Assembly (NCBI GenBank): GCA_031316235.1
Contig: JALDRA010000001.1
Coordinates: 930,001 to 962,000 of the forward strand
Direction of reading: 5' to 3'
DNA length: 32,000 nucleotides
Source of the DNA: Candidatus Scalindua sp.
GTDB lineage: Bacteria; Planctomycetota; Brocadiia; Brocadiales; Scalinduaceae
Shown: one piece after another, positions 6,021 to 23,371 of the stretch
Position numbering within the stretch: the first letter of the stretch is position 1
Layout of the letters: each line of letters starts with the position of its first letter
The notes under the pieces: model-generated
The model's database searches: none
Told to the model about the DNA's origin: nothing
The model's input: the letters and a program-made list of their open reading frames with translations, nothing else
Position numbers and translations under genes: made by a program

Positions 6021-6028
6021 GAATTATA

Positions 6029-6087
6029 TACCGATAATTTTCAAAACTGTTGCCCCGCATTCCTGCGCGTTAGCCTCTTCACGATTC
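6029..6087 (+). repeat. Family-E 59-bp direct repeat, copy 1
   Basis: TACCGATAATTTTCAAAACTG...CACGATTC aligns without gaps to 7023-7081. I counted 43 of 59 identical positions by hand. Confidence 0.6.
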
Positions 6088-6132
6088 CTGAATTTTTACC
6101 TACAGCAATCAGTACTTGAACAGAGTCCCTGT

Positions 6133-6264
6133 GGTTGAACCAAAACAGCCCAGGTACAAGGCACGTAATAATTCTGTAACCGGAACATACGCGCACATGG
6201 GTGCCTGAGTACGTGAGGATTGCGGAATTATTACAGCACCGTCGTAGATGGGTAGTTTTTGTTG
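6133..6264 (+). repeat. Family-B repeat (with a small internal duplication)
   Basis: It runs from GGTTGAACCAAAACAGCCCAGGTACAAGGCACGTAATAATTCTGTAACCGG to TTACAGCACCGTCGTAGATGGGTAGTTTTTGTTG, in the same orientation as the 2177 and 21695 copies. Confidence 0.8.
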
Positions 6265-6369
6265 CCGAAAAACGGCTAGAAAATTCGACCAGACAACTTA
6301 CAAGTAAGAAAATGAGACAAGAACTTGGCCTGAAGCATTGAATATTAATCAACAAAATCTTAGATGTTT

Positions 6370-6696
6370 TTAAGTTTGATAAATTATTTCACCTGTTGTT
6401 AATATATCATTCACAAAGCTTGCTTTTTCATAATTATTTAATTCTTCAGCATAAAATAACGTGGGCTCAATTCTAACATCTACTCTTCTCACTAATTTAA
6501 ATAACAGAGCCGATTGTTCAACATAATCTAATCCCTTCCCATCTTTTTCAACAAATATGGCAATATCTATGTCACTATTTTTTGTTGAAGTACCTTTTAC
6601 CTGCGAACCAAAAAGAATAACAAGCTTTACATTAAAATTTTGTTTTAATGATTCTATATAATTTTCTAATTTTGCTTTAATTTCTTTTTTATCCAT
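6370..6696 (-). CDS. Minimal nucleotidyltransferase (MNT-type antitoxin-like)
   Basis: 108 aa with the nucleotidyltransferase motif LFGSQVKGTSTKNSDIDIAIF (GS-X9-11-DxD). It overlaps the 3' end of the HEPN fragment, as in HEPN/MNT pairs. Confidence 0.85.
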   Translation of the reverse strand: MDKKEIKAKLENYIESLKQNFNVKLVILFGSQVKGTSTKNSDIDIAIFVEKDGKGLDYVEQSALLFKLVRRVDVRIEPTLFYAEELNNYEKASFVNDILTTGEIIYQT

Positions 6697-6872
6697 TTTT
6701 GCAGTTCCTTTGTTTCTTTTAGAATAGCTTCACATTTTTCTTGAGTTAAACTTTTCAAAAGTTCCTCTTTATATTTTGGATAACGAGCCTCAATATTCAA
6801 CGGCATTAGTTTTTCTAACAATGACATCTGGTTTTCTGAAAGCTTATCCAGTAATTCAAGTTTTTCAGCAAG
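6666..6872 (-). pseudogene. HEPN-domain gene fragment, 5'-truncated by a family-A repeat
   Basis: Only the C-terminal HEPN part is present (LLEKLMPLNIEARYPKYKEELLKSLTQEKCEAILKETKELQKWI; compare GRYPDAFPEG in the 23728-24118 copy). The first ~23 codons of track ORF 6666..6941 are encoded by repeat sequence 6873-6941. Confidence 0.7.
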
Positions 6873-7015
6873 TATACTAAAACCGATTTGGTTTTCGGTT
6901 TTACCGGAAACCAAATCCTGGTTGCTGGTATCCCCGGACAAAAAAACGCCGAGGACTTTACTCGCTCAATGTTATCTCGGATTTTATCCGAAAACTATTA
7001 TGAGATGAGAATATA
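6873..7015 (-). repeat. Family-A repeat, full length (143 bp)
   Basis: It runs from TATACTAAAACCGATTTGGTTTTCGGTTTTACCGGAAACCAAATCC to TCGGATTTTATCCGAAAACTATTATGAGATGAGAATATA and is the reverse complement of the 13533-13672 copy. Confidence 0.85.
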
Positions 7016-7022
7016 AATTTTT

Positions 7023-7081
7023 TACCGCTAATTTTCAAGATTTTTGTCCCCTGCTTCTGCGCGTCCGTCTTTTTACGGTTC
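7023..7081 (+). repeat. Family-E 59-bp direct repeat, copy 2
   Basis: TACCGCTAATTTTCAAGATTT...TACGGTTC aligns to 6029-6087. Weaker similarity continues for about 20 bp. Confidence 0.6.
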
Positions 7082-7322
7082 AAGTTTGAATCTACGATAA
7101 TGATGTTTTAACGTATATTTCATAAAGAAGAGCTAAAAAACAAGAAATTGTCGGCTCAGGGCCCTTAGAGACTAAATCAACCAACTTCTCGGATAGTAAG
7201 CTCAGAAGGTCTTTTCGTACAAGGTATAAGGATGGAATTTAGTTGCTTTAGATGGATGATAGTGTTAGCATTTTTCTTGTATCCTTCCTTTGCATAACGA
7301 TTTGGCATGATAGGTATCTTGC

Positions 7323-7940
7323 TTGATAATCAATCAAGATGAGAAATTGATCCTTGAGAACTACGCTCCGCCTTGTGTTATTATCAACGAAAAGCATGAA
7401 ATTCTCTTTTTTTATGGACAGACAGAGAGATACTTATCGCCACCAACAGGAGTCGCCAGCTTCAATATCTTAAAGATGGTACGTGAAGACCTGCGTTACC
7501 CACTTACGATAGCACTTCAGAAAGCGATCAAACAGAGGACGGAGATTGTAACAGAGAGGCTAAAAACAAGATACGCAGAGAATTATGCAAAAGCGATTTT
7601 CGATACTATACGGGAGCCCCTTTTGGTGTTAGATGAGGAGCTGAAAGTTGTCTCTGCGAATAGATCATTTTACTCTGTATTCCACGTTACCGTTAAAGAA
7701 ACCAGGGGAAATTACCTCTATAATCTGGGTAACAACCAATGGGATCTCCCTGAGTTCAGAGAGTTGCTGGAAAAAATTCTCTCTGACAAAAGTGTATTTA
7801 ATAATTTTAAGATTGAACGTGAGTTTCCATCAGTAGGACAAAAAACCGTGCTCTTGAATGCACGTCAATTACTCTATCGTAATAAGAAGTTTATTCTCCT
7901 TGCCTTTGAGGATGTCACTCTTAACAGTAAGAGCATATGA
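7323..7940 (+). CDS. Stand-alone double-PAS fragment, of the type found after the CheB-CheR domains in CheB/CheR-fusion sensors
   Basis: 205 aa with a TTG start directly after an in-frame TAG (7311-7313). ENYAPPCVIINEKHEILFFYGQTERYLSPPTG..FNILKMVREDLR and REPLLVLDEELKVVSANRSFYSVFHVTVKETRGNYLYNLGNNQWDLPEFRELLEKIL match my recollection of those sensors. Its stop overlaps the next ATG (ATGA at 7937-7940). Confidence 0.6.
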   Translation: MIINQDEKLILENYAPPCVIINEKHEILFFYGQTERYLSPPTGVASFNILKMVREDLRYPLTIALQKAIKQRTEIVTERLKTRYAENYAKAIFDTIREPLLVLDEELKVVSANRSFYSVFHVTVKETRGNYLYNLGNNQWDLPEFRELLEKILSDKSVFNNFKIEREFPSVGQKTVLLNARQLLYRNKKFILLAFEDVTLNSKSI

Positions 7941-10087
7941 AAAAAAGAGCCTCTCAACAGGAACAAGAGTTCGAGCTCCGAAAAAGAGCTGAGACAAGGT
8001 TAAAGTCTCAGGTGCAGGTTTCGGAAGAGATGTCAAATAGCGACATGAAAAAACTGATTCATGAACTGGAGGTCCATCAGGTTGAGCTCCAGATGCAGAA
8101 TGATGAACTGCTTAAAACACAGATGAAACTTGAAGAGTCCCGAGAGAGATATGCCAATCTCTATGACTTTGCACCAGTTGGTTACCTTACCTTTGACAGA
8201 GATGGAGTGATACGGGAGGCAAACCTCACCATTGCTGATCTGTTGGCAACAAAAAGGAACCTTCTCATCAATAGCCTATTTCACCATTTTGTTAAGAGAG
8301 AGGACCAAGACATATTTTATCTGCATAGGAAGAGGATCTTTGAGGGAAAAAAAGCAGAGACCTGCGAGCTAAAATTAAAGGGAAAAGATGATAGAGAGTG
8401 GTATGTCCGATTAGATAGCGTGCGAGTGCAGGATTCTCGAAATAACAGCACCTGTAGAACCGTTATAACGGACATCACCGGGCAGAAAAAGATGGAGAAT
8501 CTATTAAAAGAGTCTGAAGAAAGGCATCGTAAACTTATTGAAACGGCACAAGACGCAATTGTATGTGATGTTAATCAGGTAATTACCGATTGGAACAGAT
8601 CCGCAGAGAAGATCTTTGGGTATTCAAAACGGGAAATAATAGGACAACCGATATCACTCCTTATTCCTGAGAAATATAGGGAAGATCATAGCGAGGGAGT
8701 AAGGCGATATCTAAAGACAGGTAAAACTAAGATAATAGGTAAAACAGTAGAAATCTCAGGAGTGACGAAAGAGGGTGTTGAAATACCGTTAGAAATATCT
8801 ATAACCCATCAAAAACTGAGAAACGAAAAGCACCTATTTACGGCCATCATCCGAGATATCACTGAGCGTAAAGAGGCGATTAAGGCATTGGAACAGAGCG
8901 AGGAAAAATATAGAACCCTTGTAGAGACGATACCTGATATAGTATACAAGATCGATGAGAATGGGTATTTTACCTTTGTAAACAACTCTATACGGAATTT
9001 AGGCTATGAGCCGGAAGAGCTTTTAGGAAAACATTTTAGTCAGATATTACACCCGGATGACGTTAATAACTTGAGCCGGTCCGTAGTCTTAGAGAAGTAT
9101 TCAGGCATCAAGACGAAAGAGATGGATACACCAAAACTCTTTGATGAACGAAGGTCGAAAAAAAGAATGACAAGAAACCTTGAGGTGCGGTTAGTAACAA
9201 AGAATCAAGTGAGAGCAAAAGGTGATATCGGAGGAAGGAGGGGATTATTAACCTCCTTTGGTGAAATAGTAGCTACCGGACACTATTACGATAATGGACA
9301 CAATCATAGCAGGAGATTCGGAGGAACGGTGGGCATTATCATAGATATTACAGAAAAGATAAAATTGCAGGCGGAAATGATACGAGCAGGTCAATTGGCA
9401 TTGATAGGAGAGCTGGCAGCAGGTGTTGCCCACGAGATTAACAATCCCATATACTCCATGATAAATTTAGCCCAACTTATTACGGATGAAAGCGATAAGG
9501 ATAGCAGGCCATATACGTTTGGTAAATTGATTATGGAAGAGGGTAACCGTATAGCAGATTTAACCGCAGACCTTGTCTCTTTGTCGAGAAGTACAGATGG
9601 CCCAAAAAAACCGGTCCCTATACATGAACTCATCTCCAACTCTTTTAAACTGATCGGGATGCAGTTGGAAAAGGACCATATCACTATTAAGGTTAATATC
9701 CCAAAAGAGATACCCCCCCTCATCGTAAATCCACAGGAGATCCATCAGGTATTTTTGAATCTTATCCAAAATGCGCGATACGCCTTAAATGAGAAATATC
9801 CCGGTAGAGACAAAGACAAGATACTTGAAATTTCATGTAACACAGTGTTCATTGACGATCACCAATATGTCCGAATTATATTTTTTGACCGAGGAATCGG
9901 AATTCCGGAAGAGATCCTGCACAGAGTAAAAAGCCTCTTCTTTACGACGAAACCTCCCAACAAGGGAACCGGTATTGGCTTAAGTGTAAGTAAAACTATC
10001 ATTCATAATCATGGTGGCGTAATCACGATAGAGAGCATACGGGGAAAATTTACAAAGGTTGTAATTGATCTGCCCGTAACAGAATAA
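7937..10087 (+). CDS. Cytoplasmic multi-PAS sensor histidine kinase
   Basis: 716 aa with no hydrophobic segment. It has the coiled-coil ELEVHQVELQMQNDELLKTQMKLEESRERY, several PAS S-boxes, the H-box AAGVAHEINNP, the N-box FLNLIQNARYAL, and the G-boxes DRGIGIP and GTGIGLSVS. Confidence 0.9.
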   Translation: MKKRASQQEQEFELRKRAETRLKSQVQVSEEMSNSDMKKLIHELEVHQVELQMQNDELLKTQMKLEESRERYANLYDFAPVGYLTFDRDGVIREANLTIADLLATKRNLLINSLFHHFVKREDQDIFYLHRKRIFEGKKAETCELKLKGKDDREWYVRLDSVRVQDSRNNSTCRTVITDITGQKKMENLLKESEERHRKLIETAQDAIVCDVNQVITDWNRSAEKIFGYSKREIIGQPISLLIPEKYREDHSEGVRRYLKTGKTKIIGKTVEISGVTKEGVEIPLEISITHQKLRNEKHLFTAIIRDITERKEAIKALEQSEEKYRTLVETIPDIVYKIDENGYFTFVNNSIRNLGYEPEELLGKHFSQILHPDDVNNLSRSVVLEKYSGIKTKEMDTPKLFDERRSKKRMTRNLEVRLVTKNQVRAKGDIGGRRGLLTSFGEIVATGHYYDNGHNHSRRFGGTVGIIIDITEKIKLQAEMIRAGQLALIGELAAGVAHEINNPIYSMINLAQLITDESDKDSRPYTFGKLIMEEGNRIADLTADLVSLSRSTDGPKKPVPIHELISNSFKLIGMQLEKDHITIKVNIPKEIPPLIVNPQEIHQVFLNLIQNARYALNEKYPGRDKDKILEISCNTVFIDDHQYVRIIFFDRGIGIPEEILHRVKSLFFTTKPPNKGTGIGLSVSKTIIHNHGGVITIESIRGKFTKVVIDLPVTE

Positions 10088-10094
10088 AAAAAAC

Positions 10095-11786
10095 ATGAAA
10101 AGAGAAATCCTCATAGTTGATGATGAAAAATCCATTCGATTCACCGTAAAGGAGTTTCTGTTAAAAGAGGGATATAAGGTTTATACTGCTGAGAATTTTG
10201 ACGAAGCAGTAAAAACAATTACTACGGAACATCTGGACACCGTTTTATCGGATATTGCTTTAGAAGAAAAGACAGGCATCGACATCTTAAAAGAGGTGAA
10301 AGAGAGACGTCTGAATTGTCCGGTGATCCTGTTCACGGGATACCCTGATGTGGAGACTGCATCAGAAGCGGTTCGTCATGGAGCCTACGACTATATAACA
10401 AAGCCCATTAAAAAAGAGGCACTGCTGCATACTATTTCCAATGCGTTACAGTACAAAACCCTGGTAGAGGAGCGAAATCGGGTCCGTACCAATCTTGAAG
10501 CTATTTTTAAAAGTGTCAAAGATGCCATCATAACAGTGGATAAGGACTTGAAAGTTATTGAGGTGAATGAAGCAGCGAATGCAATCTGTGGTTTTTCACG
10601 TGAAGAAGCCACAGGAAGATCTTTTGACTCAATTCCAGACAGATGTTGCGGGCAATGTATAGAGGCCATGAAAAAAACGATAGAAGAGAAACGACCCATT
10701 GAAATGTATCACATCGAGTGTAAGCATAAGATCCACAATGGACAGGTTGTCTCTCTCAATACATTCCCTTTAATAGACGGGAATAGTCGTCTTTCCGGCT
10801 GTGTCATGATCGTAAAAGATGAGACCCGTACCCATGAGTTAGAAAGAGAGTTAAAGGTGCGACAGCGTTTTTTTAATATTGTAGGGAAAGATGATAAGAT
10901 ACAGACGCTCTACTCGTTAATAGAGCACTTAAAAGATATTGATACGAACGTACTCATTACCGGAGAGACCGGTACGGGGAAAGAACTTATCGTCGAAGCT
11001 CTGCATTACAGCGGCATACGGAGTAAAGGACCGTTAGTAAAGGTAAACTGTTCCGCTTTACCGGAAAGCCTTCTTGAAAGCGAGCTTTTCGGACATGTTA
11101 AGGGTGCATTTACGAGCGCTGTTACCGATAAGGTGGGCCGGTTCAAACAAGCCGATGGAGGTACGATATTTCTCGATGAAATTGGTGACGTATCTTTAAC
11201 TGTGCAGCAGAGACTCCTTCGGGTGCTTCAGGAAAAAGAGTTTGAGCGCGTGGGGGAATCTAAAACAACGAAGGTAGATGTGCGTATCGTGGCGGCAACC
11301 AATCAGGACCTTAAAGAAAAAGTGAGGCGGAGTGAATTCCGAAACGACCTCTATTATCGGCTGAAAGTAGTGGTATTAACTCCACCGCCACTCAGAGATA
11401 GACGAAAAGACATACCACTTCTGGTTGAACACTTTATAAAAAAATTCAACCAGAAGTTTAAAAAGCATATTGAAGCCCTTTCTCCAGATGTGTATAAGCT
11501 CTTTATGAATTATGAGTGGCCCGGAAATGTCAGAGAGTTGGAGAATACCCTAGAGCACTCCTTTATCCTCTGTCATGAGCGCATCATTACCATTGAGGAG
11601 CTTCCCGTTGAACTGAGAGAGATAAAAACCTCTCCTGGTGAAAATGCTAAGACTAATGAATCCGAGACAATCTTGCAGGCACTGGAAAAAAGCCACTGGA
11701 ATAAGTCCCTCGCAGCCAGTTTCCTGGGTGTATCCCGGAGGACCATCTACAATAAGATCAAAGAGTACAATTTACAACATAAATAA
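10095..11786 (+). CDS. Sigma-54-dependent transcriptional activator (REC-PAS-AAA+-HTH)
   Basis: The receiver domain has ILIVDDE and VLSDIAL. The PAS domain carries RCCGQC. AAA+ motifs are [23 protein letters not shown] (a GAFTGA variant) and [10 protein letters not shown]. The C-terminal Fis-type HTH is [19 protein letters not shown]. Confidence 0.92.
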
Positions 11787-11800
11787 CTCCCCCGGTAGCG

Positions 11801-11869
11801 CACATTTCACACTTTGTACATTTCACACTTTGTGCAAATTGCACACTTTGAGCACGTTTCAAACTATCC
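11801..11869 (+). promoter_or_regulatory. Four tandem ~17-bp repeats containing a 7-1-7 palindrome; candidate activator or operator sites
   Basis: TTTCACACTTTGT occurs twice (11805-11817, 11821-11833), followed by TTGCACACTTTGA (11838-11850) and the degenerate TTTCAAACTATC. TGTGCAA-A-TTGCACA at 11831-11845 has perfect dyad symmetry. The array starts 15 bp after the activator stop codon. Confidence 0.4.
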
Positions 11870-11965
11870 TCACCTAGCAAAAAGCACCATTGATTGCCCT
11901 GCTCTTCCACCTTATAACTCCATTTAAAAGCGAAGAGCGATAATAGTGATTCAATTATCTCTCTC

Positions 11966-11980
11966 TGGCATATGTTTTGT
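11966..11980 (+). promoter_or_regulatory. Possible sigma-54 promoter (TGGCAT-N5-TTGT)
   Basis: The -24/-12 spacing is correct, but the -12 element is GT rather than the conserved GC. It lies upstream of the response-regulator gene, with repeat A (12014-12153) in between. Confidence 0.35.
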
Positions 11981-12013
11981 TATGTATATATCTCATGAAT
12001 AAATCGTGCAGAA

Positions 12014-12153
12014 TATACTCATCTCATAATGGTTTCCGGATAAAATCTGAGATAAAAAGGAGCGGGTCAAGCCCCCGGCGTCTTTTGTCCGGTTTTACCG
12101 GCAACTGAGATTTCGTTTCCGGTAAAACCAAAAACCAAAGCAGTTTCAGTATA
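12014..12153 (+). repeat. Family-A repeat (diverged, 140 bp) in the leader of the response-regulator gene
   Basis: It runs from TATACTCATCTCATAATGGTTTCCGGATAAAATCTGAGATAAAA to TTTCCGGTAAAACCAAAAACCAAAGCAGTTTCAGTATA. Confidence 0.8.
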
Positions 12154-12192
12154 TCTGGCAGGGGATATTTAAGAGAGAGGAGGCTTGTTGTT

Positions 12193-12567
12193 ATGACTGT
12201 TGTTCTCATTGCAGAAGGCAATAAAAACCAACGCTTGCTTTATGAGCAGGAATTAAGCATCGAAGGCTATGAGGCCATAACTGCAGCAACTGGCAGGGAG
12301 GCCTTGGATCAAGTTCAAGAACTGCATCCTGACATAATTGTAATGGATATAAGCATGCCAAAGATGGATGTTCTTGAAGCAATTGGCAAGATTACAGGTA
12401 AAAGCAGGAGTACGCCGATTATTATACACACCGCTTATAGCCAATATAAGGAGAACTTTATGTCATGGGCTGCCGATGCTTACCTTGTTAAATCCTCAGA
12501 TCTGACTGAATTAAAGAAAACAATCAATGATTTGCTTAAAGAGAAATCAGGAGCTGCTCTAATGTAA
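12193..12567 (+). CDS. Single-domain response regulator (CheY-like receiver)
   Basis: 124 aa with RBS GAGGAGG. Phospho-acceptor context is IIVMDISMP, with conserved HTAY and YLVKS. The N-terminal acidic pocket is atypical (LIAEGN instead of DD/DE). Confidence 0.85.
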   Translation: MTVVLIAEGNKNQRLLYEQELSIEGYEAITAATGREALDQVQELHPDIIVMDISMPKMDVLEAIGKITGKSRSTPIIIHTAYSQYKENFMSWAADAYLVKSSDLTELKKTINDLLKEKSGAALM

Positions 12568-12719
12568 ATTAAAAAAACATAACAGTAACTGGAAAATACT
12601 TATGGAGCGTCGTTTATTTTTAGGAGCATCCGTTATAAATGAGAAATAGTTATAACCACCCAAACACTGATAAGAATACGAGAGAAACAAAAGACCAACC
12701 TTACCATTTAGGAGTACCG

Positions 12720-12914
12720 ATGGCGAGAGAACATAAAAAAAGGATGTGCTTAACATGTGGGAAGAGGTTTCTCAGCAAATTCCCTCACAATCGTATTTGC
12801 GCACACTGTAACATGATCAACAATACAATAATAGCAGAAGAGCACTCTGTTACTATTAGATCTGAAGATTTAGCGCAAAGGATGGGACACTATCTATGTG
12901 AGGGGGAACTTTGA
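12720..12914 (+). CDS. Small C4 zinc-ribbon protein (64 aa), function unknown
   Basis: The ATG at 12720 follows AGGAG, and I judge the track start at 12639 to be an upstream extension. It has two CxxC pairs: CLTCGKRFLSKFPHNRICAHC. Confidence 0.5.
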   Translation: MAREHKKRMCLTCGKRFLSKFPHNRICAHCNMINNTIIAEEHSVTIRSEDLAQRMGHYLCEGEL

Positions 12915-13062
12915 ACAGAGGGGTTACAGGTGAAGACTCACCATAATTCAGACGAACCAAAGGCCCGCATAATGCATGGGATTCAGGCACAAGTGTATTG
13001 CACGAGCTTACAATTTTAGCGTCTTTATTTAATGTGCAACTTTTTTAAGAGGGAGTTTAGTA

Positions 13063-13491
13063 ATGGTAAAAAATTTAGAAAAAAGCGGTACAAATTTGGA
13101 AAAGGGAATAATCGAGAAAGATAACCTCAGCAAAAATTGTGTTAAAGCGGAATCACAACCAGTGAAAGATAGAACGAGAAATGGCGGGATAAAAAAAGAG
13201 TACGTTAACGATAAAAATCTCTGCAGGGTTACGTTTACACTTCCCAAAGAAGCTACCAACGGGTCGGAGAGTGTCTCTCTCGTAGGCGATTTTAATAATT
13301 GGGATAGCCGTGCCAACCCTATGGAAAAGGGTAAAGATGGGGGGTTTGTCACCGTATGTGATCTAGAGCCGGGGAGGGAATTCCAGTTTCGCTACCTAAT
13401 CGATGATTCGATATGGGAAAATGACTGGTGCGCTGACAGATATGTTAAGAGTTGCTATGGTGACAGCGATAATTCAGTAGTTATAACCTAA
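13063..13491 (+). CDS. CBM48 / AMPK-beta glycogen-binding-type (early set) domain protein
   Basis: VTFTLPKEATNGSESVSLVGDFNNWDSRANPMEKGKDGGFVTVCDLEPGREFQFRYLIDDSIWENDWCAD matches the E-set/CBM48 pattern. RBS is GAGGGAG. Confidence 0.7.
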   Translation: MVKNLEKSGTNLEKGIIEKDNLSKNCVKAESQPVKDRTRNGGIKKEYVNDKNLCRVTFTLPKEATNGSESVSLVGDFNNWDSRANPMEKGKDGGFVTVCDLEPGREFQFRYLIDDSIWENDWCADRYVKSCYGDSDNSVVIT

Positions 13492-13532
13492 GTGTATAAG
13501 AATCTCGATTTTAGATATCTTTGAATAAAAGT

Positions 13533-13672
13533 TATACTCATCTCATAATGATTTTCGGATAAAATCCGAGATAAAATTGAGCGAGTAAAGTCCTCGGCGT
13601 TTTTTGTCCGGGGATACCAGCAACCAGGATTTGGTTTCCGGTAAAACCGAAAACCAAATCAGTTTTTGTATA
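13533..13672 (+). repeat. Family-A repeat, full length (140 bp; used as reference copy)
   Basis: It runs from TATACTCATCTCATAATGATTTTCGGATAAAATCCGAGATAAAATTGAGCGAGTAAAGTCCTCGGCG to CCAGGATTTGGTTTCCGGTAAAACCGAAAACCAAATCAGTTTTTGTATA. Confidence 0.85.
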
Positions 13673-13673
13673 T

Positions 13674-13706
13674 TACCGCAACGCCGTAGATGGGTAGTTT
13701 TTGTTC
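13674..13706 (+). repeat. Family-B right-end fragment abutting the A copy
   Basis: TACCGCAACGCCGTAGATGGGTAGTTTTTGTTC matches the right ends of the 6133-6264 and 21899-21992 copies. No B left half is present. Confidence 0.65.
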
Positions 13707-13729
13707 CACCACTAATTAAGGGATAAAGA

Positions 13730-14332: not shown

Positions 14333-14395
14333 ATTTGATAAATATTTATATCCTGAAAACATATAAGTCTCATCATAACAATTACATAGATGTTT

Positions 14396-14410
14396 TGGCA
14401 CATTCGTTGC
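14396..14410 (+). promoter_or_regulatory. Sigma-54 (-24/-12) promoter of the hsp20 cluster
   Basis: TGGCACATTCGTTGC is an exact match to TGGCAC-N5-TTGC with canonical spacing. It lies 103 nt upstream of an ATG preceded by AAAGGAGG, and an AT-rich tract lies upstream. Confidence 0.8.
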
Positions 14411-14512
14411 GTATTGGAAATCCAGAAAAAATACCTTTTAAAAAAGCGAAAATTTGTTGAGGTGCTGCCTTATTTAATTACATATCTATTATATTTTGAA
14501 AGGAGGTTTAAA

Positions 14513-14932
14513 ATGTTATTACCAAGTGTATTTCAAGACTTATCGGGGCTACAGGAAGCAGTGGACCGTTCGTTTAACACCGACTTCTTTAATAGCTTAA
14601 CAAGCGGGCGGGGTGTTTATCCGGCAGTTAACATCTTTGAAAAGGATGGTGACACCGTTTTAGTTGCGGAATTACCTGGAGTGAAAAAGAAGGATATCAA
14701 CATTGAAGTAAAAGAAAACACTGTAAGACTTTCAGGGGAACGTGCGATAAAGTACGACAAAAACGTTAGTTACCACCGCGCTGAACGTAACTCCTCTAAA
14801 TTTGACAGGACACTGAAACTGCCAATAAACGTTCAGACTGACAAGGTAAAAGCGGAGTATAAAGACGGTCTTCTTGTTCTCTGTCTACCACGTGCCGAAA
14901 AAGATAAACCAAAACAAATTACAATCCAATAA
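14513..14932 (+). CDS. Hsp20/alpha-crystallin small heat-shock protein 1
   Basis: I place the start at 14513 (RBS AAAGGAGG), because the track start at 14390 would put the sigma-54 promoter inside the gene. Alpha-crystallin motifs are AELPGVKKKDINIEVKENTVRLSGER and DGLLVLCLPRAEK. Confidence 0.9.
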   Translation: MLLPSVFQDLSGLQEAVDRSFNTDFFNSLTSGRGVYPAVNIFEKDGDTVLVAELPGVKKKDINIEVKENTVRLSGERAIKYDKNVSYHRAERNSSKFDRTLKLPINVQTDKVKAEYKDGLLVLCLPRAEKDKPKQITIQ

Positions 14933-14952
14933 TTATCGGAAAGGAGGATATC

Positions 14953-15363
14953 ATGAACAATGAAACGAAAGCAGTTACCAAAACTGAAGATAAGAAACCT
15001 GAAAAGAGAGAATATGCTGGAGAGAGGACCGTACAGGGGAAATATTATGTCCCCAAGACTGATATTGCGGAAACAGAAAAAAACCTTGTGGTAACTATGG
15101 ACGTTCCTGGAGTACGAAAGGAAAACGTAAATATCACCCTTGAAAACAATAACCTGGAGGTTGATGCCAAAATAGATTTTTCACCCTATGAAAAACTCAA
15201 CCCGGTATATACCGAGTACAACGTCGGGCACTATACGAGGAGTTTCACTGTATCAAACATTATTGATACGAAGAACATTGATGCAAATCTCACAGATGGA
15301 GTGTTGACATTGACACTACCAAAGGCTCCTGAAGCACTGCCAAGAAAGATTGAGATTACCTAA
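14953..15363 (+). CDS. Hsp20/alpha-crystallin small heat-shock protein 2
   Basis: RBS is GGAAAGGAGG. Motifs are MDVPGVRKENVNITLENNNLEV and DGVLTLTLPKA. It starts 20 nt after hsp20-1. Confidence 0.88.
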   Translation: MNNETKAVTKTEDKKPEKREYAGERTVQGKYYVPKTDIAETEKNLVVTMDVPGVRKENVNITLENNNLEVDAKIDFSPYEKLNPVYTEYNVGHYTRSFTVSNIIDTKNIDANLTDGVLTLTLPKAPEALPRKIEIT

Positions 15364-15497
15364 CTCAGATCGACAGAGGGCTCCTTGGGCCAGGCAACAA
15401 TGAACTTGTGATCGACACACATTCACCATTGCGACGTAAATTAGAATAGTATTTTAAATGCTTATAATTTTAAATTTTAACAGAAAAGGAGGCTATC

Positions 15498-16004
15498 ATG
15501 GCTTTACGAGACTTAATAACATTGAACAGAAAAAAACAGCAACAGACGCAACCTGAACTTCAATCCCCTGTAGCTACGCTTCACAGGGAAGTTGATCAAT
15601 TATTTGACGATTTCTTAAGAAGTTTTGATAGATTTCCGTCTCTCCCTTTCAGGAAAGAGAGGCTATCTGATTTTTCACCAAAGATTAATGTTAGCGAAAA
15701 TGACAAAGAGATTGAAGTCACGGTAGAGGTACCGGGAATGGACCAGAACGACGTTGATGTCTCCCTGAGAGACGACGTGCTCACTATCAAGGGAGAAAAG
15801 AAACAGGAAAAAGAGGAAAAGGATAAAGAGTACTACCATGTAGAGCGGAGCTATGGATCTTTTTACCGTTCCCTTCAGGTTCCCTGTGAAGTTGACCAGG
15901 ATAATATCAATGCCGCATTTAAGAAAGGAGTACTTAAGATAACCCTGCCAAAGAGTATAAAAGCTCAGGAAAACGTGCGGAAGATTGAAGTAAAAGATGA
16001 ATAA
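15498..16004 (+). CDS. Hsp20/alpha-crystallin small heat-shock protein 3
   Basis: RBS is AAAGGAGG. Motifs are VEVPGMDQNDVDVSLRDDVLTIKGEK, ERSYGSFYRSLQVP and GVLKITLPK. A TTAGAA-16-TATAAT (15441-15468) lies upstream. Confidence 0.9.
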   Translation: MALRDLITLNRKKQQQTQPELQSPVATLHREVDQLFDDFLRSFDRFPSLPFRKERLSDFSPKINVSENDKEIEVTVEVPGMDQNDVDVSLRDDVLTIKGEKKQEKEEKDKEYYHVERSYGSFYRSLQVPCEVDQDNINAAFKKGVLKITLPKSIKAQENVRKIEVKDE

Positions 16005-16011
16005 GTAAGAA

Positions 16012-16073
16012 ACCGCTTACTATGGAAGTTAATATTTTGAACTACTTTTTTAAATGCTTCCATAGTAAGCGGT
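16012..16073 (+). terminator. Perfect 17-bp stem with a 28-nt loop after hsp20-3 (attenuator, terminator or processing site)
   Basis: ACCGCTTACTATGGAAG (16012-16028) is the exact reverse complement of CTTCCATAGTAAGCGGT (16057-16073). No U-tract follows, so the terminator call is weak. Confidence 0.35.
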
Positions 16074-16287
16074 CAAATGGCAACAAGCAAAACTTTGTTT
16101 AGCAAGGTATGACAAGTTATATTTCAGTATGAAAAAATCATCCTTCGTTTCTGCTCAGGGCACTCGGCATAACTTATTGGTTGATACTACGAAAAAAAGA
16201 AAAAGAGGCAAGTGTATAAGTAAACTTTTTGAAGATTTCGATAACAAAGCGTCGGTATGTAGGTACTTATCAGAAAAGGAAATTGAA

Positions 16288-16890
16288 ATGTTAAAATACC
16301 AGATAATTATCGGTGTATTATGTTTTGCCCTTGGTGCAGCAGTTCTACTTGCAGTTCAAAACTTTAGAAACGATGAGAAACACGACATACATACAGATGA
16401 TAAATTATTCGATCATAAAGGAAACGTGGACAAAACATTAGATTCATTTTTTAATGATGATTTTTTAAGGTCCAGTAAATCCCCTTTTGAAGAAATGAGG
16501 AGAATGCAGGAGAGTATGATGAGTCAGTTCGGTAAACTCGATGATGATCCCGGTGATGGAATGTTTGGTTCTTGGTTTAAAAAGAGGTTTGGCGGAGGTA
16601 AGCCTGGAGATATACAAACGAGAGAGGATGAAGATTTTGTCTACTATGATGTTGTTATCAAGGACCTTTCCAATAAAAAAATTGACATAAAGGTGGAAGA
16701 CGGACAGATAAGAATTTCCGGTACAATTGAAACAAGATCTGATAATAAGGAAAAGGATGCAACTTCCAGTCAGTTTTATAGCTCAACATTCCATCGATCA
16801 TTTCCTGTTCCCAATGGGGTCGATGGTGATAGGGTACAGATGGAACAGGAAGGCGAGAAAATGATTATCAAATTTCCAAAGATCAAGTAA
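16288..16890 (+). CDS. Membrane-anchored alpha-crystallin-domain protein
   Basis: I prefer the ATG at 16288 (RBS GAAAAGGAAA) to the track start at 16129. N-terminal MLKYQIIIGVLCFALGAAVLLAV is a single hydrophobic helix. The C-terminus FVYYDVVIKDLSNKKIDIKVEDGQIRISGTIE...FHRSFPVPNGVDGDRVQMEQEGEKMIIKFPK follows the sHSP fold pattern. Confidence 0.65.
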   Translation: MLKYQIIIGVLCFALGAAVLLAVQNFRNDEKHDIHTDDKLFDHKGNVDKTLDSFFNDDFLRSSKSPFEEMRRMQESMMSQFGKLDDDPGDGMFGSWFKKRFGGGKPGDIQTREDEDFVYYDVVIKDLSNKKIDIKVEDGQIRISGTIETRSDNKEKDATSSQFYSSTFHRSFPVPNGVDGDRVQMEQEGEKMIIKFPKIK

Positions 16891-16963
16891 GAGAAAAAAC
16901 TAATAATCATTTGAGAAATAAACATCAAACTACCAGCTAAACGTAAGAAAGGAGAAACGGGAA

Positions 16964-17674
16964 ATGAATCCAATTCGTGATATTTTTCTCAATCGTAAAA
17001 ACAAGACAATTGTTGGTGTGGCTGCATTACTGATACTGACCATCTTTACCTACACGATTGGTGAAGCCTCAGATAAGATAAAGGAGGGTGTAGGACAGAG
17101 GGACCGATCATCCATTACTACAGGCAGCGGAAAGCTCTATCAAACAACCGTAGAGCGGCACACTGAAGGCACTTTGTCTGCACAGGATTTACATCAGGCA
17201 TCTCTTCTCACTTCACGTATCGTAAAACACCTGAACGAGGCAACAAAAGGCCTCTTAGATGAAAACCCGGAAGCTGCAAAGCCGAATATCGTAAGTGCAC
17301 AGAAACTGGTGGAGGTGGTAAGAGAATTACTCCCCGTAACAACGGTAACGACCACTGTAAGAGACGCAAGAGGTAAAGAGGTATACCGAGACATCGATAC
17401 GGTACAAGACGACAAGATCCACCTGTACAGTAAAATGATTGCCATAGAAATTCTCCAACCGATCATTGATGCCAAGGAAGAAGATGTGGATGTTAAAGGT
17501 CTGAAGCTTGCAGACGCCGAAATTATTCATACATCGGTTCTTGCAGACCTCAGCTATATTGAACGAAAATTGAACCGTGCAGAGGCGTTATACTCATCTC
17601 ATAATGGTTTTAGTATAGTACTGATTATGAGCGAAACAGATCGTGGGAACAAATTCGAAACTGAGGTTGTTTGA
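16964..17674 (+). CDS. Exported or anchored helical protein, tentatively YfdX-like; carries a 9-codon repeat-derived insertion
   Basis: RBS is AAAGGAGAAA, with the N-terminal hydrophobic anchor IVGVAALLILTIFTYTIG. The pattern HLNEATKGLLDENPEAAKPNIVSAQKLVEV ... LADLSYIERKLNRAEAL resembles YfdX repeats from memory only. Codons YSSHNGFSI are encoded by the mini A element. Confidence 0.45.
   Translation: MNPIRDIFLNRKNKTIVGVAALLILTIFTYTIGEASDKIKEGVGQRDRSSITTGSGKLYQTTVERHTEGTLSAQDLHQASLLTSRIVKHLNEATKGLLDENPEAAKPNIVSAQKLVEVVRELLPVTTVTTTVRDARGKEVYRDIDTVQDDKIHLYSKMIAIEILQPIIDAKEEDVDVKGLKLADAEIIHTSVLADLSYIERKLNRAEALYSSHNGFSIVLIMSETDRGNKFETEVV
17589..17617 (+). repeat. Family-A mini element (29 bp: left end fused to right end) inside a coding region
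   Basis: TATACTCATCTCATAATGG+TTTTAGTATA consists of the two A termini with the interior missing. Confidence 0.75.
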
Positions 17675-17803
17675 AATTTGAAGGGAGAAACTTCTGTTAC
17701 AGATGAAAACACTTTGGATTAATTGGTGAGTATTGATAATTTTTTCAGTCGGGTAACTAAATTTGCATTACAGCAAATACGGATAGCTTTTCAGGAGAAT
17801 AGG

Positions 17804-19288
17804 ATGAAGACAAATATAAGTATGCGGTTTATCTTTTTGTTGTTCCTGTTTATTTTTACAGCAGGGCCGGTATATGCATTAGAAGAGAAGGGTGTCAAAA
17901 ACTTACGCCAGACCAGTAAGGCCTTTGCCGCTGTTGCGCGGGAGGTATCACCATCGGTGGTTTTCATACGGGTTGAGGCTAAAGTTCCCGGTTCGTCAAT
18001 TAACCGGTTTCAGTTACCTTTTGGCAATGAGTGGCCCTTTGAAGATGACCTCTTCAGACGTTTCTTTGGGGACAAATTCCCTGGAACACCTCGGGAGCCA
18101 CGCTCCGAGGAACCGCGTGGCGAAAATAGAACCATGGGACAGGGGTCCGGTTTCGTGTTTGCGGCAAAAGACGGATTTCTATCCGAGAAGACATACATAA
18201 TAACAAACAACCACGTTGTAGAGAATGCTGACGAGATCAAGGTACAATTTCAAGATGGCGCTGAATATAAAGCTAAAATCACGGGACGTGATCCCCAGTC
18301 AGACGTTGCGGTTATAGAAATCAAAACCGGAGATATAAAAGCTGCCAGATTGGGAGACTCTTCCGATCTGGAGGTTGGGGAGTGGGTTGTAGCAATTGGA
18401 AACCCATTCGGACTGAGCCACACTCTTACTGTAGGTGTGGTGAGCGCTACGGGGCGTACCAGTATCGGTATCAATGATTATGAAGATTTCATCCAGACCG
18501 ATGCTGCGATCAATCCGGGCAATTCCGGCGGACCATTGGTCAATCTGGATGGTGAGGTGGTGGGTATCAATACTGCCATCTTTAGCCGCAGTGGAGGCTA
18601 TATGGGAGTTGGCTTCGCTATCCCGATCAATCTAGCCAGGGAGATAGCCAACCAGTTAATCGATAAAGGCGAGGTAACGCGTGGTTATCTTGGCATAGTG
18701 ATTCAACCGCTTACTGCTGACCTTGCCAAATCATTTAATATTGAAATGGGTAAGGGTATACTTATCTCTCAGGTATCAGAGGACTCCCCTGCAGAGAAAG
18801 CGGGTTTACGCCAGGGAGATGTTATCATTGCTTATCGCGGAGAACCGGTAACGAATGTCGGCAATTTCCGCAACAGGATAGCGCTCACTCAACCAGACAG
18901 CCGGGAGGAGCTAACGATCCTGAGGGAGGGAAAGCAGAAGACACTTACCATAACAATTGGCAAGCTCACCAAAGACAAACTTATTGCACAGTCTCCGGCC
19001 CAAAGCACAGAGCAGCTTGGTTTGACGGTACAGACGCTTACACCACAGTTGGCGGAACAATTTGGAGCAAAAGAAGATGAAGGCGTCGTGGTGACGGAAG
19101 TCAAACCCGGATCCATCGCTGCAATGGCGGGTATCAGGTCTGGCACGGTGATCATGCAGGTAGACCGTAAACCAGTAAAAAGCGCTGCCGAGTTTAAGAG
19201 TGCAGTTGAGAAGAGCAGCAGTGACAAGAGTGTACTGTTGCTCATTCAGAGAGGAGAGATACAGCAATATATTGTGTTGAGTTGGTAA
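17804..19288 (+). CDS. htrA: HtrA/DegP-family periplasmic serine protease with two PDZ domains
   Basis: Start is at 17804 (RBS AGGAG) with signal peptide MKTNISMRFIFLLFLFIFTAGPVYA. The catalytic triad contexts are TNNHVV, SDVAVIE and GNSGGPLVN. Two PDZ segments are present (GILISQVSEDSPAEKAGLRQGDVI and GVVVTEVKPGSIAAMAGIRSGTVI). Confidence 0.93.
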   Translation: MKTNISMRFIFLLFLFIFTAGPVYALEEKGVKNLRQTSKAFAAVAREVSPSVVFIRVEAKVPGSSINRFQLPFGNEWPFEDDLFRRFFGDKFPGTPREPRSEEPRGENRTMGQGSGFVFAAKDGFLSEKTYIITNNHVVENADEIKVQFQDGAEYKAKITGRDPQSDVAVIEIKTGDIKAARLGDSSDLEVGEWVVAIGNPFGLSHTLTVGVVSATGRTSIGINDYEDFIQTDAAINPGNSGGPLVNLDGEVVGINTAIFSRSGGYMGVGFAIPINLAREIANQLIDKGEVTRGYLGIVIQPLTADLAKSFNIEMGKGILISQVSEDSPAEKAGLRQGDVIIAYRGEPVTNVGNFRNRIALTQPDSREELTILREGKQKTLTITIGKLTKDKLIAQSPAQSTEQLGLTVQTLTPQLAEQFGAKEDEGVVVTEVKPGSIAAMAGIRSGTVIMQVDRKPVKSAAEFKSAVEKSSSDKSVLLLIQRGEIQQYIVLSW

Positions 19289-19498
19289 GCCATGAAAATT
19301 AGGGAAGCGTCTATATTTTCAATCTAATTACTGAATGGAGGCGATGTATTCAAAGATTGTGAAAAGATTACGTCTTTTGAGATAAAGGAAGGAGACTACA
19401 TTAAGGCCAGGCATTCTCATATTGGAGACAGTGCAATCCTGCTGGATACCTGTCTGATTGTTAAAAAGTAGTGTACGTTTTAACTAAACGCTCACATA

Positions 19499-19534
19499 AT
19501 TCATTGGCCGCTTGAATCCCGGCGGCCAATGAAT
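19499..19534. terminator. 13-bp-stem hairpin between convergent genes (possible bidirectional terminator)
   Basis: ATTCATTGGCCGC (19499-19511) and GCGGCCAATGAAT (19522-19534) are exact complements, followed by TTTAATAA. The U-tract is modest. Confidence 0.45.
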
Positions 19535-19658
19535 TTAATAAGTTGTCTGCTGGATTTTTCAACCAATCTAAAACAGATATTCTTACACTAGTAATGAATA
19601 CCACATTTGTTGGCGCCACCCAAAGAGGTCAGGCATCGGCCCACATTCACTTTCCTCA

Positions 19659-19757
19659 TCAATACTCTAAGGGTTCTAACGCTTCAGAATGTGGTTTTTG
19701 AGAATGAAAAATAATTGTAGTGGTTTTAGGAAAATTCTCATCTAGAAAGAATCTCAT
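19659..19757 (-). pseudogene. Possible remnant of a DUF5615/PIN-like toxin gene (32 codons)
   Basis: Its ATG overlaps the DUF433 stop (ATGA). MRFFLDENFPKTTT resembles the M.FL.DENLP start typical of DUF5615 partners of DUF433. The frame then closes after 32 codons, and I could read no convincing continuation in other frames. Confidence 0.3.
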
Positions 19758-19984
19758 TGAGTGGAGGCCTCGTATGATAATTCTTCAAATTGAGCCAGTT
19801 TACTGCCAAAGGATAAAGCTGCGTAGATATCCTCACGTGTTATATTAGGGTAATCCTCAAGAACTTCCTCGATCGAGTTACCAGCACCTAAAGCACCAAG
19901 TAAATTACTTACAGGCACTCTCGTACCTTTAATTACCGGTTTTCCATGACAAATCTTCGGACTTATTTCAATTCTTGAATTCAT
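19754..19984 (-). CDS. DUF433-domain protein (antitoxin-like)
   Basis: I prefer the start at 19984 (MNSRIEISPKICHGKPVIKGTRVPVSNLL...VLEDYPNITREDIYAAL), because the track start at 20050 extends into repeat A. Confidence 0.75.
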   Translation of the reverse strand: MNSRIEISPKICHGKPVIKGTRVPVSNLLGALGAGNSIEEVLEDYPNITREDIYAALSFGSKLAQFEELSYEASTQ

Positions 19985-20041
19985 TTTCTGTCGACTCCAT
20001 ATTCTTTTTGAGACCGAAACCCTTCGATAATCTTTATTTAA

Positions 20042-20153
20042 TATACTCATCTCATACTGGATTTCGGATAAAATCCGAGATAAAATTGAGCGAGTATACC
20101 TTCACCAGGATTTGGTTTCCGGTAAAACCGAAAACCAAATCGGTTTTAGTATA
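20042..20153 (+). repeat. Family-A repeat, 112-bp subfamily
   Basis: It has the same ends and both hairpins as the 140-bp copies, but the central ~36 nt are replaced by TACCTTCA. By my count it differs at about 7 of 112 positions from the reverse complement of 26003-26114. Confidence 0.85.
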
Positions 20154-20285
20154 TTATAATCCATACACACTATGGCAACTTATTTTGTATAATTAAGAGA
20201 GGCAATGCGTGCAAGATTACCTTATCGCTACTCGGTACTCCCTATAGCTGAAATTGGGCGGACTAAATCAAAGGAAAGGAAAAAA

Positions 20286-21440
20286 ATGAGATACATAGCA
20301 ATGTTAATATTAATGGTTTTTGTTTCAAATATCTTTTTCACAGTTGACTCTTTTGCACAGCGGGGAAGGGGCTGGAGAGGAGGATGTGGAAATGGGAATC
20401 CGTGTTGTAGAACGTATAACCCGGAAACAGAAGCAACAATCAGTGGCGAGGTTGTTAGCGTAGACAAGATCGTTCGAGGAAAAGAAGGGCTTTACGGAAT
20501 CCATTTAACGGTGAAAGCCGACGAGGAAATCGTGACCGTTCACTTAGGACCGGGCTGGTACATTGAGCACCAGGATATGAAGATTGAGGCGAAGGATAAG
20601 GTTGAAATTACTGGTTCAAAGGTTTTTTATGAGGGCAAACCAGTCATTACTGCTTATGAAATAAAAAAGGGAGACGATATATTAGTACTAAGAGATGCGG
20701 ACGGTTTTCCTGCCTGGAGTGGTTGGAGACGGCTCTCTGATAATCAACCTCCCAAAAGACAGGGAATGGGATGGAAGGGTAGTGGTGAGTGGGGATGTCG
20801 GAATCCGGGTTGCAGGAGGCATAACCCCAAAATGCAGGAGAAGTTAAAAAAGGCCATGGTGGATTTAAAACAGGAGATAAAGATTGATGTTAAGGCCGAG
20901 AACGGAGGAACTATTACTGGAAATGTAGAAAGTGAAAGAGTCAGATACCCGGAAAACGTAGTTGTCTCTATTGAGAAAGTGGGGGACAATATTTATCCTG
21001 CTCCAGAGGAACACGGAATAATTGATCAATTCAACCTTACTTTTGTTCCACACGTATTGGCTGTACAAAAGGGAACGAAGATTGATTTTCTCAATAGTGA
21101 CAGTGTGCAACACAACGTCTTTTCTCAACCTGATTGCTGTCAGCCGTTTAATGTTGGAACGTATGACGTTGGAGATGTAAAGACTGTAGAGTTTAACGAA
21201 GCCGGTGAAATACCTCTTTTATGTAACGTCCATGCCGAGATGTCTGCATTTGTGGTTGTACTCGAAAATCCTTATTTTTCTGTTACCGGTAAGGACGGAG
21301 TCTTTACAATTGGAAATGTTCCACCCGGAACATACAAACTAAATGCCTGGCATGAATCGTTAAGGACAGTATCAAAAGAAGTAACAGTAGAAGCAGGAAA
21401 GACAACGACTGTCGATTTTCAATTAAAGAACAGAAAGTAA
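20286..21440 (+). CDS. Exported protein: duplicated Gly/Trp/Cys-rich motif, cupredoxin-like domain and carboxypeptidase-regulatory-like domain
   Basis: Start is at 20286 with signal peptide MRYIAMLILMVFVSNIFFTVDSFA. The type-1-copper-like ligand pattern is SVQHNVF ... LLCNVHAEM (H...C-x2-H-x2-M). The C-terminal FSVTGKDGVFTIGNVPPGTYKLNAWHE is typical of CarboxypepD_reg folds. Confidence 0.7.
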   Translation: MRYIAMLILMVFVSNIFFTVDSFAQRGRGWRGGCGNGNPCCRTYNPETEATISGEVVSVDKIVRGKEGLYGIHLTVKADEEIVTVHLGPGWYIEHQDMKIEAKDKVEITGSKVFYEGKPVITAYEIKKGDDILVLRDADGFPAWSGWRRLSDNQPPKRQGMGWKGSGEWGCRNPGCRRHNPKMQEKLKKAMVDLKQEIKIDVKAENGGTITGNVESERVRYPENVVVSIEKVGDNIYPAPEEHGIIDQFNLTFVPHVLAVQKGTKIDFLNSDSVQHNVFSQPDCCQPFNVGTYDVGDVKTVEFNEAGEIPLLCNVHAEMSAFVVVLENPYFSVTGKDGVFTIGNVPPGTYKLNAWHESLRTVSKEVTVEAGKTTTVDFQLKNRK

Positions 21441-21694
21441 GAAAGTCTCTATTTCTAGAGAAGAATACAACACGATACACCCTTATCGAACATTGAGTAA
21501 CAAAGACGTTATAATACGAAATCAAGAAACACTATAACACAATAAAACGCATTACCCTGTAAAAAAACAAGAGACCCTGGCTGCCTGATTTTAATCTGAA
21601 ACGATCCAGAGAATATAGACAGTCAGTAATAACATCCCCCAAATCCCCCGTTCAAAGCGGGACTTTGATTTTAATGGGGATAATAGCAAACAGT

Positions 21695-21992
21695 GGTTGA
21701 ATCAACTGCCCAGATATACTCATTACAAAATGATTTTTGGAATTTCTGGGCAGGAGTTCGTTTGAAATTTGGATTTTTCGATTGAACAAAACCAGAGGCT
21801 TAGTAATACTAAGTCGAGGATTTTGTGATTGAGAAAAATATAAATTTCATGTGAAATCGGGTTCTGAAAACCAAAAATCAATTTGTAATGGGTATAAAAG
21901 GCGCGTAAAAATTCTGGAACCGGAGCGTACTCAAGTACGTGAGGATTACAGAATTTTTACAGCAACGCCGTAGATGGGCAGTTGGTTCAACC
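21695..21992 (+). repeat. Family-B repeat split by a nested family-C element
   Basis: The left end GGTTGAATCAACTGCCCAG (21695-21713) and the remainder (21897-21992, ending GTAGATGGGCAGTTGGTTCAACC) together match the 6133-6264 copy. The outermost ends GGTTGAA.C and GGTTCAACC are inverted. Confidence 0.75.
21715..21896. repeat. Family-C palindromic element (182 bp) whose ends resemble the family-A left end
   Basis: TATACTCATTACAAAATGATTTTTGG (21715-21740) is an imperfect inverted repeat of CCAAAAATCAATTTGTAATGGGTATA (21871-21896). The whole element folds as a long imperfect hairpin centred on TTAGTAATACTAA. Confidence 0.75.
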
Positions 21993-23270: not shown

Positions 23271-23371
23271 GAGTTTGACTGAAGCCTCAAATAAAATAGT
23301 AGATATTTGGCGGTTCAGGAGTCAGATACAAAAAAAGGAAATAAACAAAAGATGAAACGAAAAATACTCTT

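Follow-up and report, generated by a model that had tools for sequence, protein, structure and literature searches.

In Bacillus subtilis, yhaN is located downstream of yhaO, the two products (YhaO/YhaN, also SbcF/SbcE) show an interaction by yeast two-hybrid, and SbcE acts in double-strand-break repair (PMC2811018). Here we analyse a comparable gene pair in a stretch of 32,000 nucleotides (the window) from Candidatus Scalindua sp., an anaerobic ammonium-oxidizing (anammox) member of the Planctomycetota; the window sits on a contig of 4.15 Mb. Like yhaO-yhaN, the pair combines a nuclease of the metallophosphoesterase type with a long ATPase of the AAA_27/SMC type, with the nuclease first and the two genes ancestrally adjacent. 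Unlike in B. subtilis, the genes in the window are 16 kb apart and require separate expression. Complex formation and a role in double-strand-break repair are known for the B. subtilis pair only and would apply by analogy to the Planctomycetota pair, which is known from sequence. We propose that the pair was probably parted long ago by a short dispersed element, here called B, that the gap then became an island of variable cargo, and that a native stress module was relocated into this island later.

Both genes of the pair are intact:

21987-23270 (-): SbcD/Mre11-like (YhaO-type) metallophosphoesterase nuclease, 427 aa, with a calcineurin-like domain (PF00149)
3228-6020 (-): SMC-like AAA_27 (YhaN/SbcE-type) ATPase, 930 aa, with PF13514 (AAA_27), PF13476 (AAA_23) and PF02463 (SMC_N)

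According to Pfam, the nuclease matches PF00149 with E=2.4e-15 (57.9 bits vs a cut-off of 21.5). In the ATPase, PF13514 covers residues 1-203 (E=8.5e-20) and PF02463 spans residues 550-919 at 31.3 bits, under the Pfam cut-off of 40. The ATPase head is split into an N-terminal AAA_27/AAA_23 part and a C-terminal SMC_N part, which is the long SMC-like type. The NCBIfam matches for the pair are SbcD, Mre11 and Rad50, all sub-threshold and with no equivalog reached; the SbcD subfamily score of the nuclease is 51 bits, under the cut-off of 77.65. By its domains, the pair is SbcCD-like and of the YhaO/YhaN (SbcF/SbcE) type. The nearest database relatives of the nuclease are all Scalindua, and orthologs within this genus have identities of 90%, 85% and 66% for the nuclease and 86%, 81%, 74% and 58% for the ATPase. 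The nuclease has a ratio of nonsynonymous to synonymous divergence (dN/dS) of 0.10-0.12 and the ATPase one of 0.14-0.15, similar to the 0.07-0.11 of neighbouring housekeeping genes. Because the ratio is low in both genes of the pair, nuclease and ATPase stayed functional after unlinking; judged by these substitution patterns, both full-length genes are under purifying selection. PADLOC, with which the pair was tested as a defence system, matched the ATPase weakly to an LmuB-like model (2.4e-14) and gave no meaningful match to the nuclease; since this weak match was all that it gave, the label of a defence system was dropped.

The comparison with loci from relatives (L numbers) establishes the starting point. 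The pair is adjacent or almost so in S. japonica (L007), L010, L012, L018 and L025. In S. japonica, the nuclease stop overlaps the ATPase start as TAATG (GCTAATGAAA), and in L012 the gap between the genes is 12 bp. The genes for PGM, nuclease, AAA_27 ATPase and inositol monophosphatase (IMPase, Inositol_P) are contiguous in the outgroup L025 (41% identity), whose outer neighbours the window keeps (iPGM 28757-30307, IMPase 2346-3122). Since the genes are adjacent in L025 and in Scalindua relatives, with common outer neighbours, the adjacent pair is ancestral, and the comparison of gene order shows nuclease and ATPase as former members of one operon. Their junction carries other elements in two further loci: in L010 a 262-bp dispersed repeat (9740-10000) and in L018 an 862-bp IS200-like element (9140-10000; Y1_Tnp E=5.9e-25), flanked by hairpins resembling repetitive extragenic palindromes (REP), occupy exactly the space from the nuclease stop to the ATPase ATG. 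In L011, L013 and L014, the ATPase is preceded by unrelated genes, with a BBP2 porin in L011 and L013 and RtcB also in L011.

In the window, the distance from nuclease to ATPase is 15.97 kb, on the same strand and with the nuclease first, as an earlier reading of the letters alone (the sequence-only reading) had it. All four species of the subclade to which the window belongs have the pair separated, and the relatives' gaps of 6.4-12.8 kb hold unrelated cargos:

Window: gap 16 kb; NT/HEPN cassette and native stress module
L003/L008 (AMX11-type, 86-90% identity): gap ~10.3 kb; MazE, RelB, DDE transposase, Gp49/HI1420, TPR protein, guanylate cyclase, HEPN/NT
L006/L009 (one 2.28-Mb contig, 81-85%): gap 12.8 kb; P-II, hemerythrin, FitA/PIN, ParE, SIR2, MComp1, DDE transposase, AAA_15 ATPase
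L015 (74%): gap 6.4 kb; ISL3 transposase, RelB/YafQ, unknown open reading frames (ORFs); nuclease frameshifted

The element B, a hairpin that occurs in dispersed copies, is 115-130 nt long and has the terminal inverted repeats GTGGTTGAAC...GTTCAACCAC; one copy lies near each gene of the pair:

21692-21993 (+): B, short-loop subtype, inserted in the nuclease ORF at its 3' end and overlapping the stop
6134-6263 (+): B, long-loop subtype (central insert of 19 nt), located 113 bp upstream of the ATPase ATG; the L008 ortholog is 92% identical, and L009 has none
21444-21691 (no strand): conserved nuclease-side island flank, whose distal end is the boundary where cargo begins

An alignment of nuclease 3' ends places the B insertions of the window, L003, L006 and L015 at one and the same nucleotide, after TTATCsGGTGGT, and in all four genomes the terminal repeat of B supplies the TGA stop of the nuclease. 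The adjacent-type L012 has no B at this position and reads GGTGGTAAGTAAAGCTAATG instead. Because the insertion site is identical in four genomes, the nuclease-side B is a shared event and the oldest of the split. These alignments show the split as older than the stress module (the block), which by this evidence did not part an intact operon. The window, L006 and L015 have ~250 bp beyond B in common and diverge from one another from 21444-21450; L003 lacks a boundary at 21444, its homology ending ~145 nt nearer the nuclease. Part of this conserved flank is repeated beside the toxin-antitoxin (TA) cassette within the L006 cargo.

Conserved flanks with differing cargo, as expected of a genomic island, are found in the window, L003/L008, L006/L009 and L015, and the atypical composition often looked for in such cargo is confined to the NT/HEPN cassette. 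The locus is a recurrent insertion site that has grown into a variable island, a known kind of genome plasticity. A transposase (DDE type only) is present in every relative's island and not in that of the window: Pfam matched no integrase or transposase among the interval ORFs scanned, in agreement with the sequence-only reading of the block, and the window yielded neither a tRNA gene nor att-like sites.

Between the two genes lie the TA, kinase/sigma-54, small heat-shock protein (sHSP)-HtrA, TA-remnant and cupredoxin genes that had been listed from the letters, most of them recognized by Pfam:

7100-21441 (+): relocated native module (the block), collinear with L020 ~2481-18197 at 84-92% nucleotide identity
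6370-6941 (-): NT/HEPN TA cassette (Pfam)
7323-11786 (+): PAS ORF, PAS histidine kinase and sigma-54 activator (Pfam)
12193-19288 (+): response regulator, CBM48, four HSP20 genes and HtrA (Pfam)
19754-20050 (-): DUF433 (Pfam)
19659-19757 (-): putative truncated toxin remnant, a 32-aa ORF (MRFFLDENFP...) beside DUF433
20205-21440 (+): cupredoxin/CarboxypepD_reg gene

The block thus named comprises a CheBR-PAS remnant, a PAS histidine kinase, a sigma-54 activator, a response regulator, CBM48, four sHSP genes, a YfdX-like ORF, HtrA, a DUF433 TA remnant and the cupredoxin/CarboxypepD_reg gene. Its orthologs are located elsewhere in L020/L021, L022 and L023, on other contigs in L020/L021 and L022. 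In L020 and L022, the module adjoins an AmmeMemoRadiSam radical-SAM gene, and in S. japonica ~100 kb separate it from the nuclease and ATPase genes, which are adjacent there. The comparison of synteny that the sequence-only reading had called for therefore supports it in two respects, the adjacency of the pair in the five loci named above and the different location of the block in every relative examined. Orthologs of the sigma-54 activator have identities of 89%, 80% and 66%, in step with those of the nuclease, and among activator matches of at least 57% identity a single copy comes from the window's contig. The composition of the block, which the same reading had wanted compared with the flanks, is native: the tetranucleotide correlation with the flanks (r=0.89) equals or exceeds the within-class values, and only the NT/HEPN cassette deviates. 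A foreign origin by composition was rejected for the block and accepted for this cassette only. At the right junction, homology to L020 ends at 21441, the stop of the cupredoxin gene, and homology to the L006/L015 flank starts at 21444-21447, ~250 bp from the nuclease-side B. The left junction is near 7100, right after a sequence termed C' that is described below, and ~840 bp from the ATPase-side B.

We consider an old split by B, a variable island and a later relocation of the native stress module to be the likely history of the locus. The ancestor, as the adjacent-type relatives show, carried (i)PGM, nuclease, ATPase and IMPase, and its nuclease stop overlapped or abutted the ATPase start. 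In the ancestor of the subclade, a B of ~115 nt landed at the last codons of the nuclease, provided a new TGA stop and uncoupled the ATPase, a step shown by the common insertion site. The gap then turned into a high-turnover region, as shown by four species with four unrelated cargos, three of them with the same boundary near 21444. In the window lineage only, a 14.3-kb native module would have moved from the radical-SAM neighbourhood into the island; the location is evident from the alignments, and the route was most likely an illegitimate or insertion sequence (IS)-assisted rearrangement. A sister Scalindua lineage may have taken part through exchange, since the block is relatively less diverged from it than the flanks are. 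Selection on both genes shows that nuclease and ATPase still work as unlinked genes, the ATPase now presumably being transcribed from within or upstream of the TA cassette. In this history, the B copies are bystanders to the relocation, and only the nuclease-side copy is causal, in the initial split. The idea that the block was put into a pre-existing operon is correct in that the operon was once intact and the block was displaced; by the time the block arrived, however, the operon had already been split.

Several results weigh against this history. The donor ("empty") site of the window genome, searched for via the radical-SAM neighbour, gave no match on the 4.15-Mb contig, and L024, the best unplaced relative in this search, has only the radical-SAM gene in common with L020; because the donor site was not retrieved, cut-and-paste is not separated from transfer between congeners and a subsequent loss of the native copy. 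No transposase, repeat or clear microhomology is common to both block ends, and the donor boundaries in L020 have no repeats in common; as no mark is found on both ends of the block, we infer the relocation mechanism rather than read it from the junctions. Synonymous divergence puts the three closest species at almost equal distances for some flank genes, so that the parsimony argument takes its branching order mainly from amino-acid identity. A scan of the minus strand at 6021-6370 gave no sigma-70 promoter for the ATPase.

Could recombination between the two direct B copies have brought the block into an intact operon, or still release it? The sequence-only reading placed a copy near each junction, and it was right about their positions and their direct orientation near each gene; a deletion between them would arithmetically rejoin nuclease and ATPase. 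We nevertheless regard this route as very improbable. The junctions near 7100 and 21441-21447 are not at B, and both copies occupy orthologous sites in relatives without the block and predate it. They belong to different subtypes, as the 19-nt central insert of the ATPase-side copy is missing from the nuclease-side copy, and no other two B copies are as distant from each other (72.8% identity, an indel, and exact matches of at most 14 nt), a similarity too low for efficient homologous recombination. Moreover, the four subclade species all have the pair split already, with the same nuclease-side B and other cargo; unlinked orthologs within the lineage had been named beforehand as evidence that would speak against the proposal. 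An assembly chimera caused by B and by the abundant repeats A and P, introduced below, is the least credible explanation. Short-read contigs of the same samples do break at B and A copies, but Logan contigs (SRR28338161; L026, L027) match the window at 100% over 6980-12042 and 20131-21750 and cross both junctions, the right one in unique sequence. Because independent contigs span both junctions without a mismatch, the arrangement is not a misassembly.

A lateral gain of the block from an AMX11-type sister lineage, with loss of the window's own copy and no intragenomic move, has more in its favour, and we still judge it unlikely. Synonymous divergence (dS) between the window and the AMX11-type, taken relative to the 85% species, gives ratios of 0.22-0.34 for the histidine kinase, the sigma-54 activator and CBM48 vs 0.58-1.06 for flank genes; the HEPN/NT cassettes, 97-100% identical to the AMX11-type, show that exchange between these lineages occurs; and the block holds remnants of the AMX11-type CheBR-PAS arrangement. 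However, homologous exchange in situ, in either direction and independent of the relocation, explains the low dS equally well, and the low ratio over window 7937-13491 (vs L020 and L022) suggests an exchange tract within the block. The response-regulator gene in the block has a ratio of 0.65, which is not low, the block composition is indistinguishable from that of the flanks, and a lateral gain requires the extra loss of a native copy. The boundary near 21444 might also be a specific site at which a trans-acting site-specific system swaps cargo cassettes: three genomes with three cargos have one divergence point, the last stop codon of the block is 3-6 nt from it, and a portion of the flank recurs beside the TA cassette in the L006 cargo. 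This is improbable to us, as the L003 boundary differs by ~145 nt, there is no recombinase, tRNA or recognisable att-like repeat at the other end, and an ancestral flank retained under selection would give a common boundary as well. Only as a long shot would we extend the idea to the SbcCD-like junction as a preferred target in Scalindua, with the flank up to 21444 as a recombination site that swaps cassettes, native multi-gene modules included, without a recombinase encoded in cis; this draws on the independent insertions of B, the 262-bp repeat and the IS200-like element, and on the unlinked pair in a further lineage.

Upstream of the ATPase lie the following sequences:

6019-6087 (-): C, ATPase-proximal upstream sequence
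7012-7098 (-): C', a diverged duplicate of C (72%) that abuts the left junction of the block and holds a sigma-70-like site
6873-7014 (-): A element truncating the HEPN gene; L003/L008 homology stops at 6875

No Shine-Dalgarno sequence is seen at the ATPase ATG, as had already been remarked from the letters. According to the promoter scan, the best sigma-70-like site near the ATPase is the one in C', at 7038-7010 (-). Since the scan found no sigma-70-like promoter between TA cassette and ATPase and the best site is in C', we infer that the ATPase is transcribed by read-through from sequences in or upstream of the cassette. The HEPN gene is 5'-truncated by A, so that its ORF matches residues 23-91 only. 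The NT/HEPN cassette is compositionally foreign, with GC contents at third codon positions of 0.15 and 0.33, and at 6370-6941 its nucleotide identity to L008 is 97-99% vs ~87% for the ATPase. Both HEPN/NT cassettes of the window (6313-6762 and 23150-24350) have 97-100% nucleotide identity to the AMX11-type with a dS of 0.01-0.07, vs 82-90% and 0.4-0.8 for the genes beside them. This pattern points to a recent exchange or conversion of TA cassettes between species.

The block itself has been remodelled in comparison with its closest relatives:

7323-7940 (+): 205-aa PAS ORF, a mosaic remnant of the L020 CheB/CheR-PAS gene
14396-14410 (+): perfect sigma-54 -24/-12 consensus (TGGCACATTCGTTGC) heading the sHSP cluster

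AMX11-type genomes (L020 2706-7669) have an intact 969-aa CheB/CheR-PAS gene and a 685-aa hybrid histidine kinase. The window is without the hybrid kinase and has internal deletions of ~3.8 kb relative to L020; window 7337-7574 corresponds to L020 4250-4487 and window 7576-8223 to L020 5251-5898. The AMX11-type HtrA is a 21-codon remnant with 95% identity (L020 17176-17238), and tblastn in AMX11-type genomes found no ortholog of the fourth sHSP or of the YfdX-like ORF (window 16129-19288). The HtrA remnant and the missing orthologs mean that module content differs between close species. The sigma-54 site falls within the mechanically called sHSP1 ORF (14390-14932). The S. japonica sHSP1 ortholog aligns from residue 33, and the true start codon is probably further downstream than called. 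The ORF at 19659-19757 (-) resembles what we take to be the N-terminal stump of the toxin partner of DUF433; if it is this stump, the second TA module would be degraded.

Damage was also seen in the pair outside the window. The L015 nuclease (2311-3570) is split over several reading frames, and the L017 ATPase (2312-3452) lacks residues ~215-762. The cause would be that one of the partners decays in certain lineages, or else errors in the assembly of metagenome-assembled genomes.

Besides B, the window holds two further families of non-coding repeats, P and A, and the remaining copies are the following:

2175-2289 (+): B copy outside the interval
28336-28451 (-): B copy outside the interval, with its ortholog at L003 6215-6329
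13671-13705: B fragment
21716-21895 (no strand): P, a 180-nt palindromic element nested in B, resembling MITEs (miniature inverted-repeat transposable elements); DNA fold -43 kcal/mol, z=-9.3
12014-12154 (+): A element in the block, missing from the orthologous L020 site (insertion polymorphism)
13533-13673 (+): A element in the block, also at the orthologous L020 site
20042-20153 (+): short variant of the A element, located upstream of the cupredoxin-like gene
25698-25772 and 26003-26114: A elements

The nuclease-side copy of 300 bp is a single B of ~115 nt that carries the nested P, which is present there in the window and L006 and absent in L003; further P copies occur in L006, L008 and L009. 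Both ends of P read TATACyCATTACAAA. Members of the A family are 112-141 nt long (TATACTCATC...AGTATA) and more abundant than B, with six or seven copies vs four or five in 32 kb, and both families recur in most Scalindua loci fetched. In general, A, B and P are MITE-like, being non-coding, 110-180 nt long, bounded by terminal inverted repeats and polymorphic in presence and absence. By inspection, a TA dinucleotide borders P and A, and no transposase was matched to them. An Rfam scan of the whole window returned no family for A, B or P, and no paper that links Scalindua with MITEs was found in the library searched. All six A copies (6/6) are oriented like the gene downstream of them, and A may carry an outward regulatory signal. 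P (21716-21745) and A (13533-13550) have the terminal motif TATACTCAT in common, and on account of this motif the same transposase family may mobilise both.

Intergenic repeats of the MITE/REP-like kind are known from bacteria, for example Correia/NEMIS, ERIC and REP-BIME. A, B and P resemble them in being short, non-coding, hairpin-forming and dispersed, with terminal inverted repeats and polymorphic presence, and differ in that they have no Rfam match and no cognate transposase has been identified. For annotation, this means that A, B and P of Scalindua should be treated as abundant mobile elements, whose presence near a rearrangement is not evidence of its mechanism. For anammox genomics, the locus illustrates an extensive exchange of TA cassettes between species, as well as repeat families that break short-read assemblies.

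The block resembles the sHSP/envelope-stress modules that are controlled through sigma-54 by a two-component activator of the NtrC type, as it combines a PAS kinase, an activator of the architecture response regulator-PAS-AAA+-HTH_8, HSP20 genes behind TGGCAC-N5-TTGC, and HtrA. Its membership in a sigma-54 regulon would follow from one promoter match, and the gene content varies among Scalindua species. The locus as a whole offers a stepwise, dated case of operon decay, in which a MITE falls on a stop/start overlap, the gap becomes a hotspot for cargo and the partners remain under selection while unlinked, and it indicates that a native module of regulators and chaperones can be relocated into such a hotspot. 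It is comparable to chromosomal integration hotspots in its conserved flanks and its species-specific cargo rich in TA genes, IS transposases, SIR2, AAA_15 and HEPN/NT. Unlike these hotspots, it lies inside a former two-gene operon, has no integrase, tRNA or att sites that could be found, and in the window carries mostly a native, housekeeping-type stress module instead of foreign DNA.

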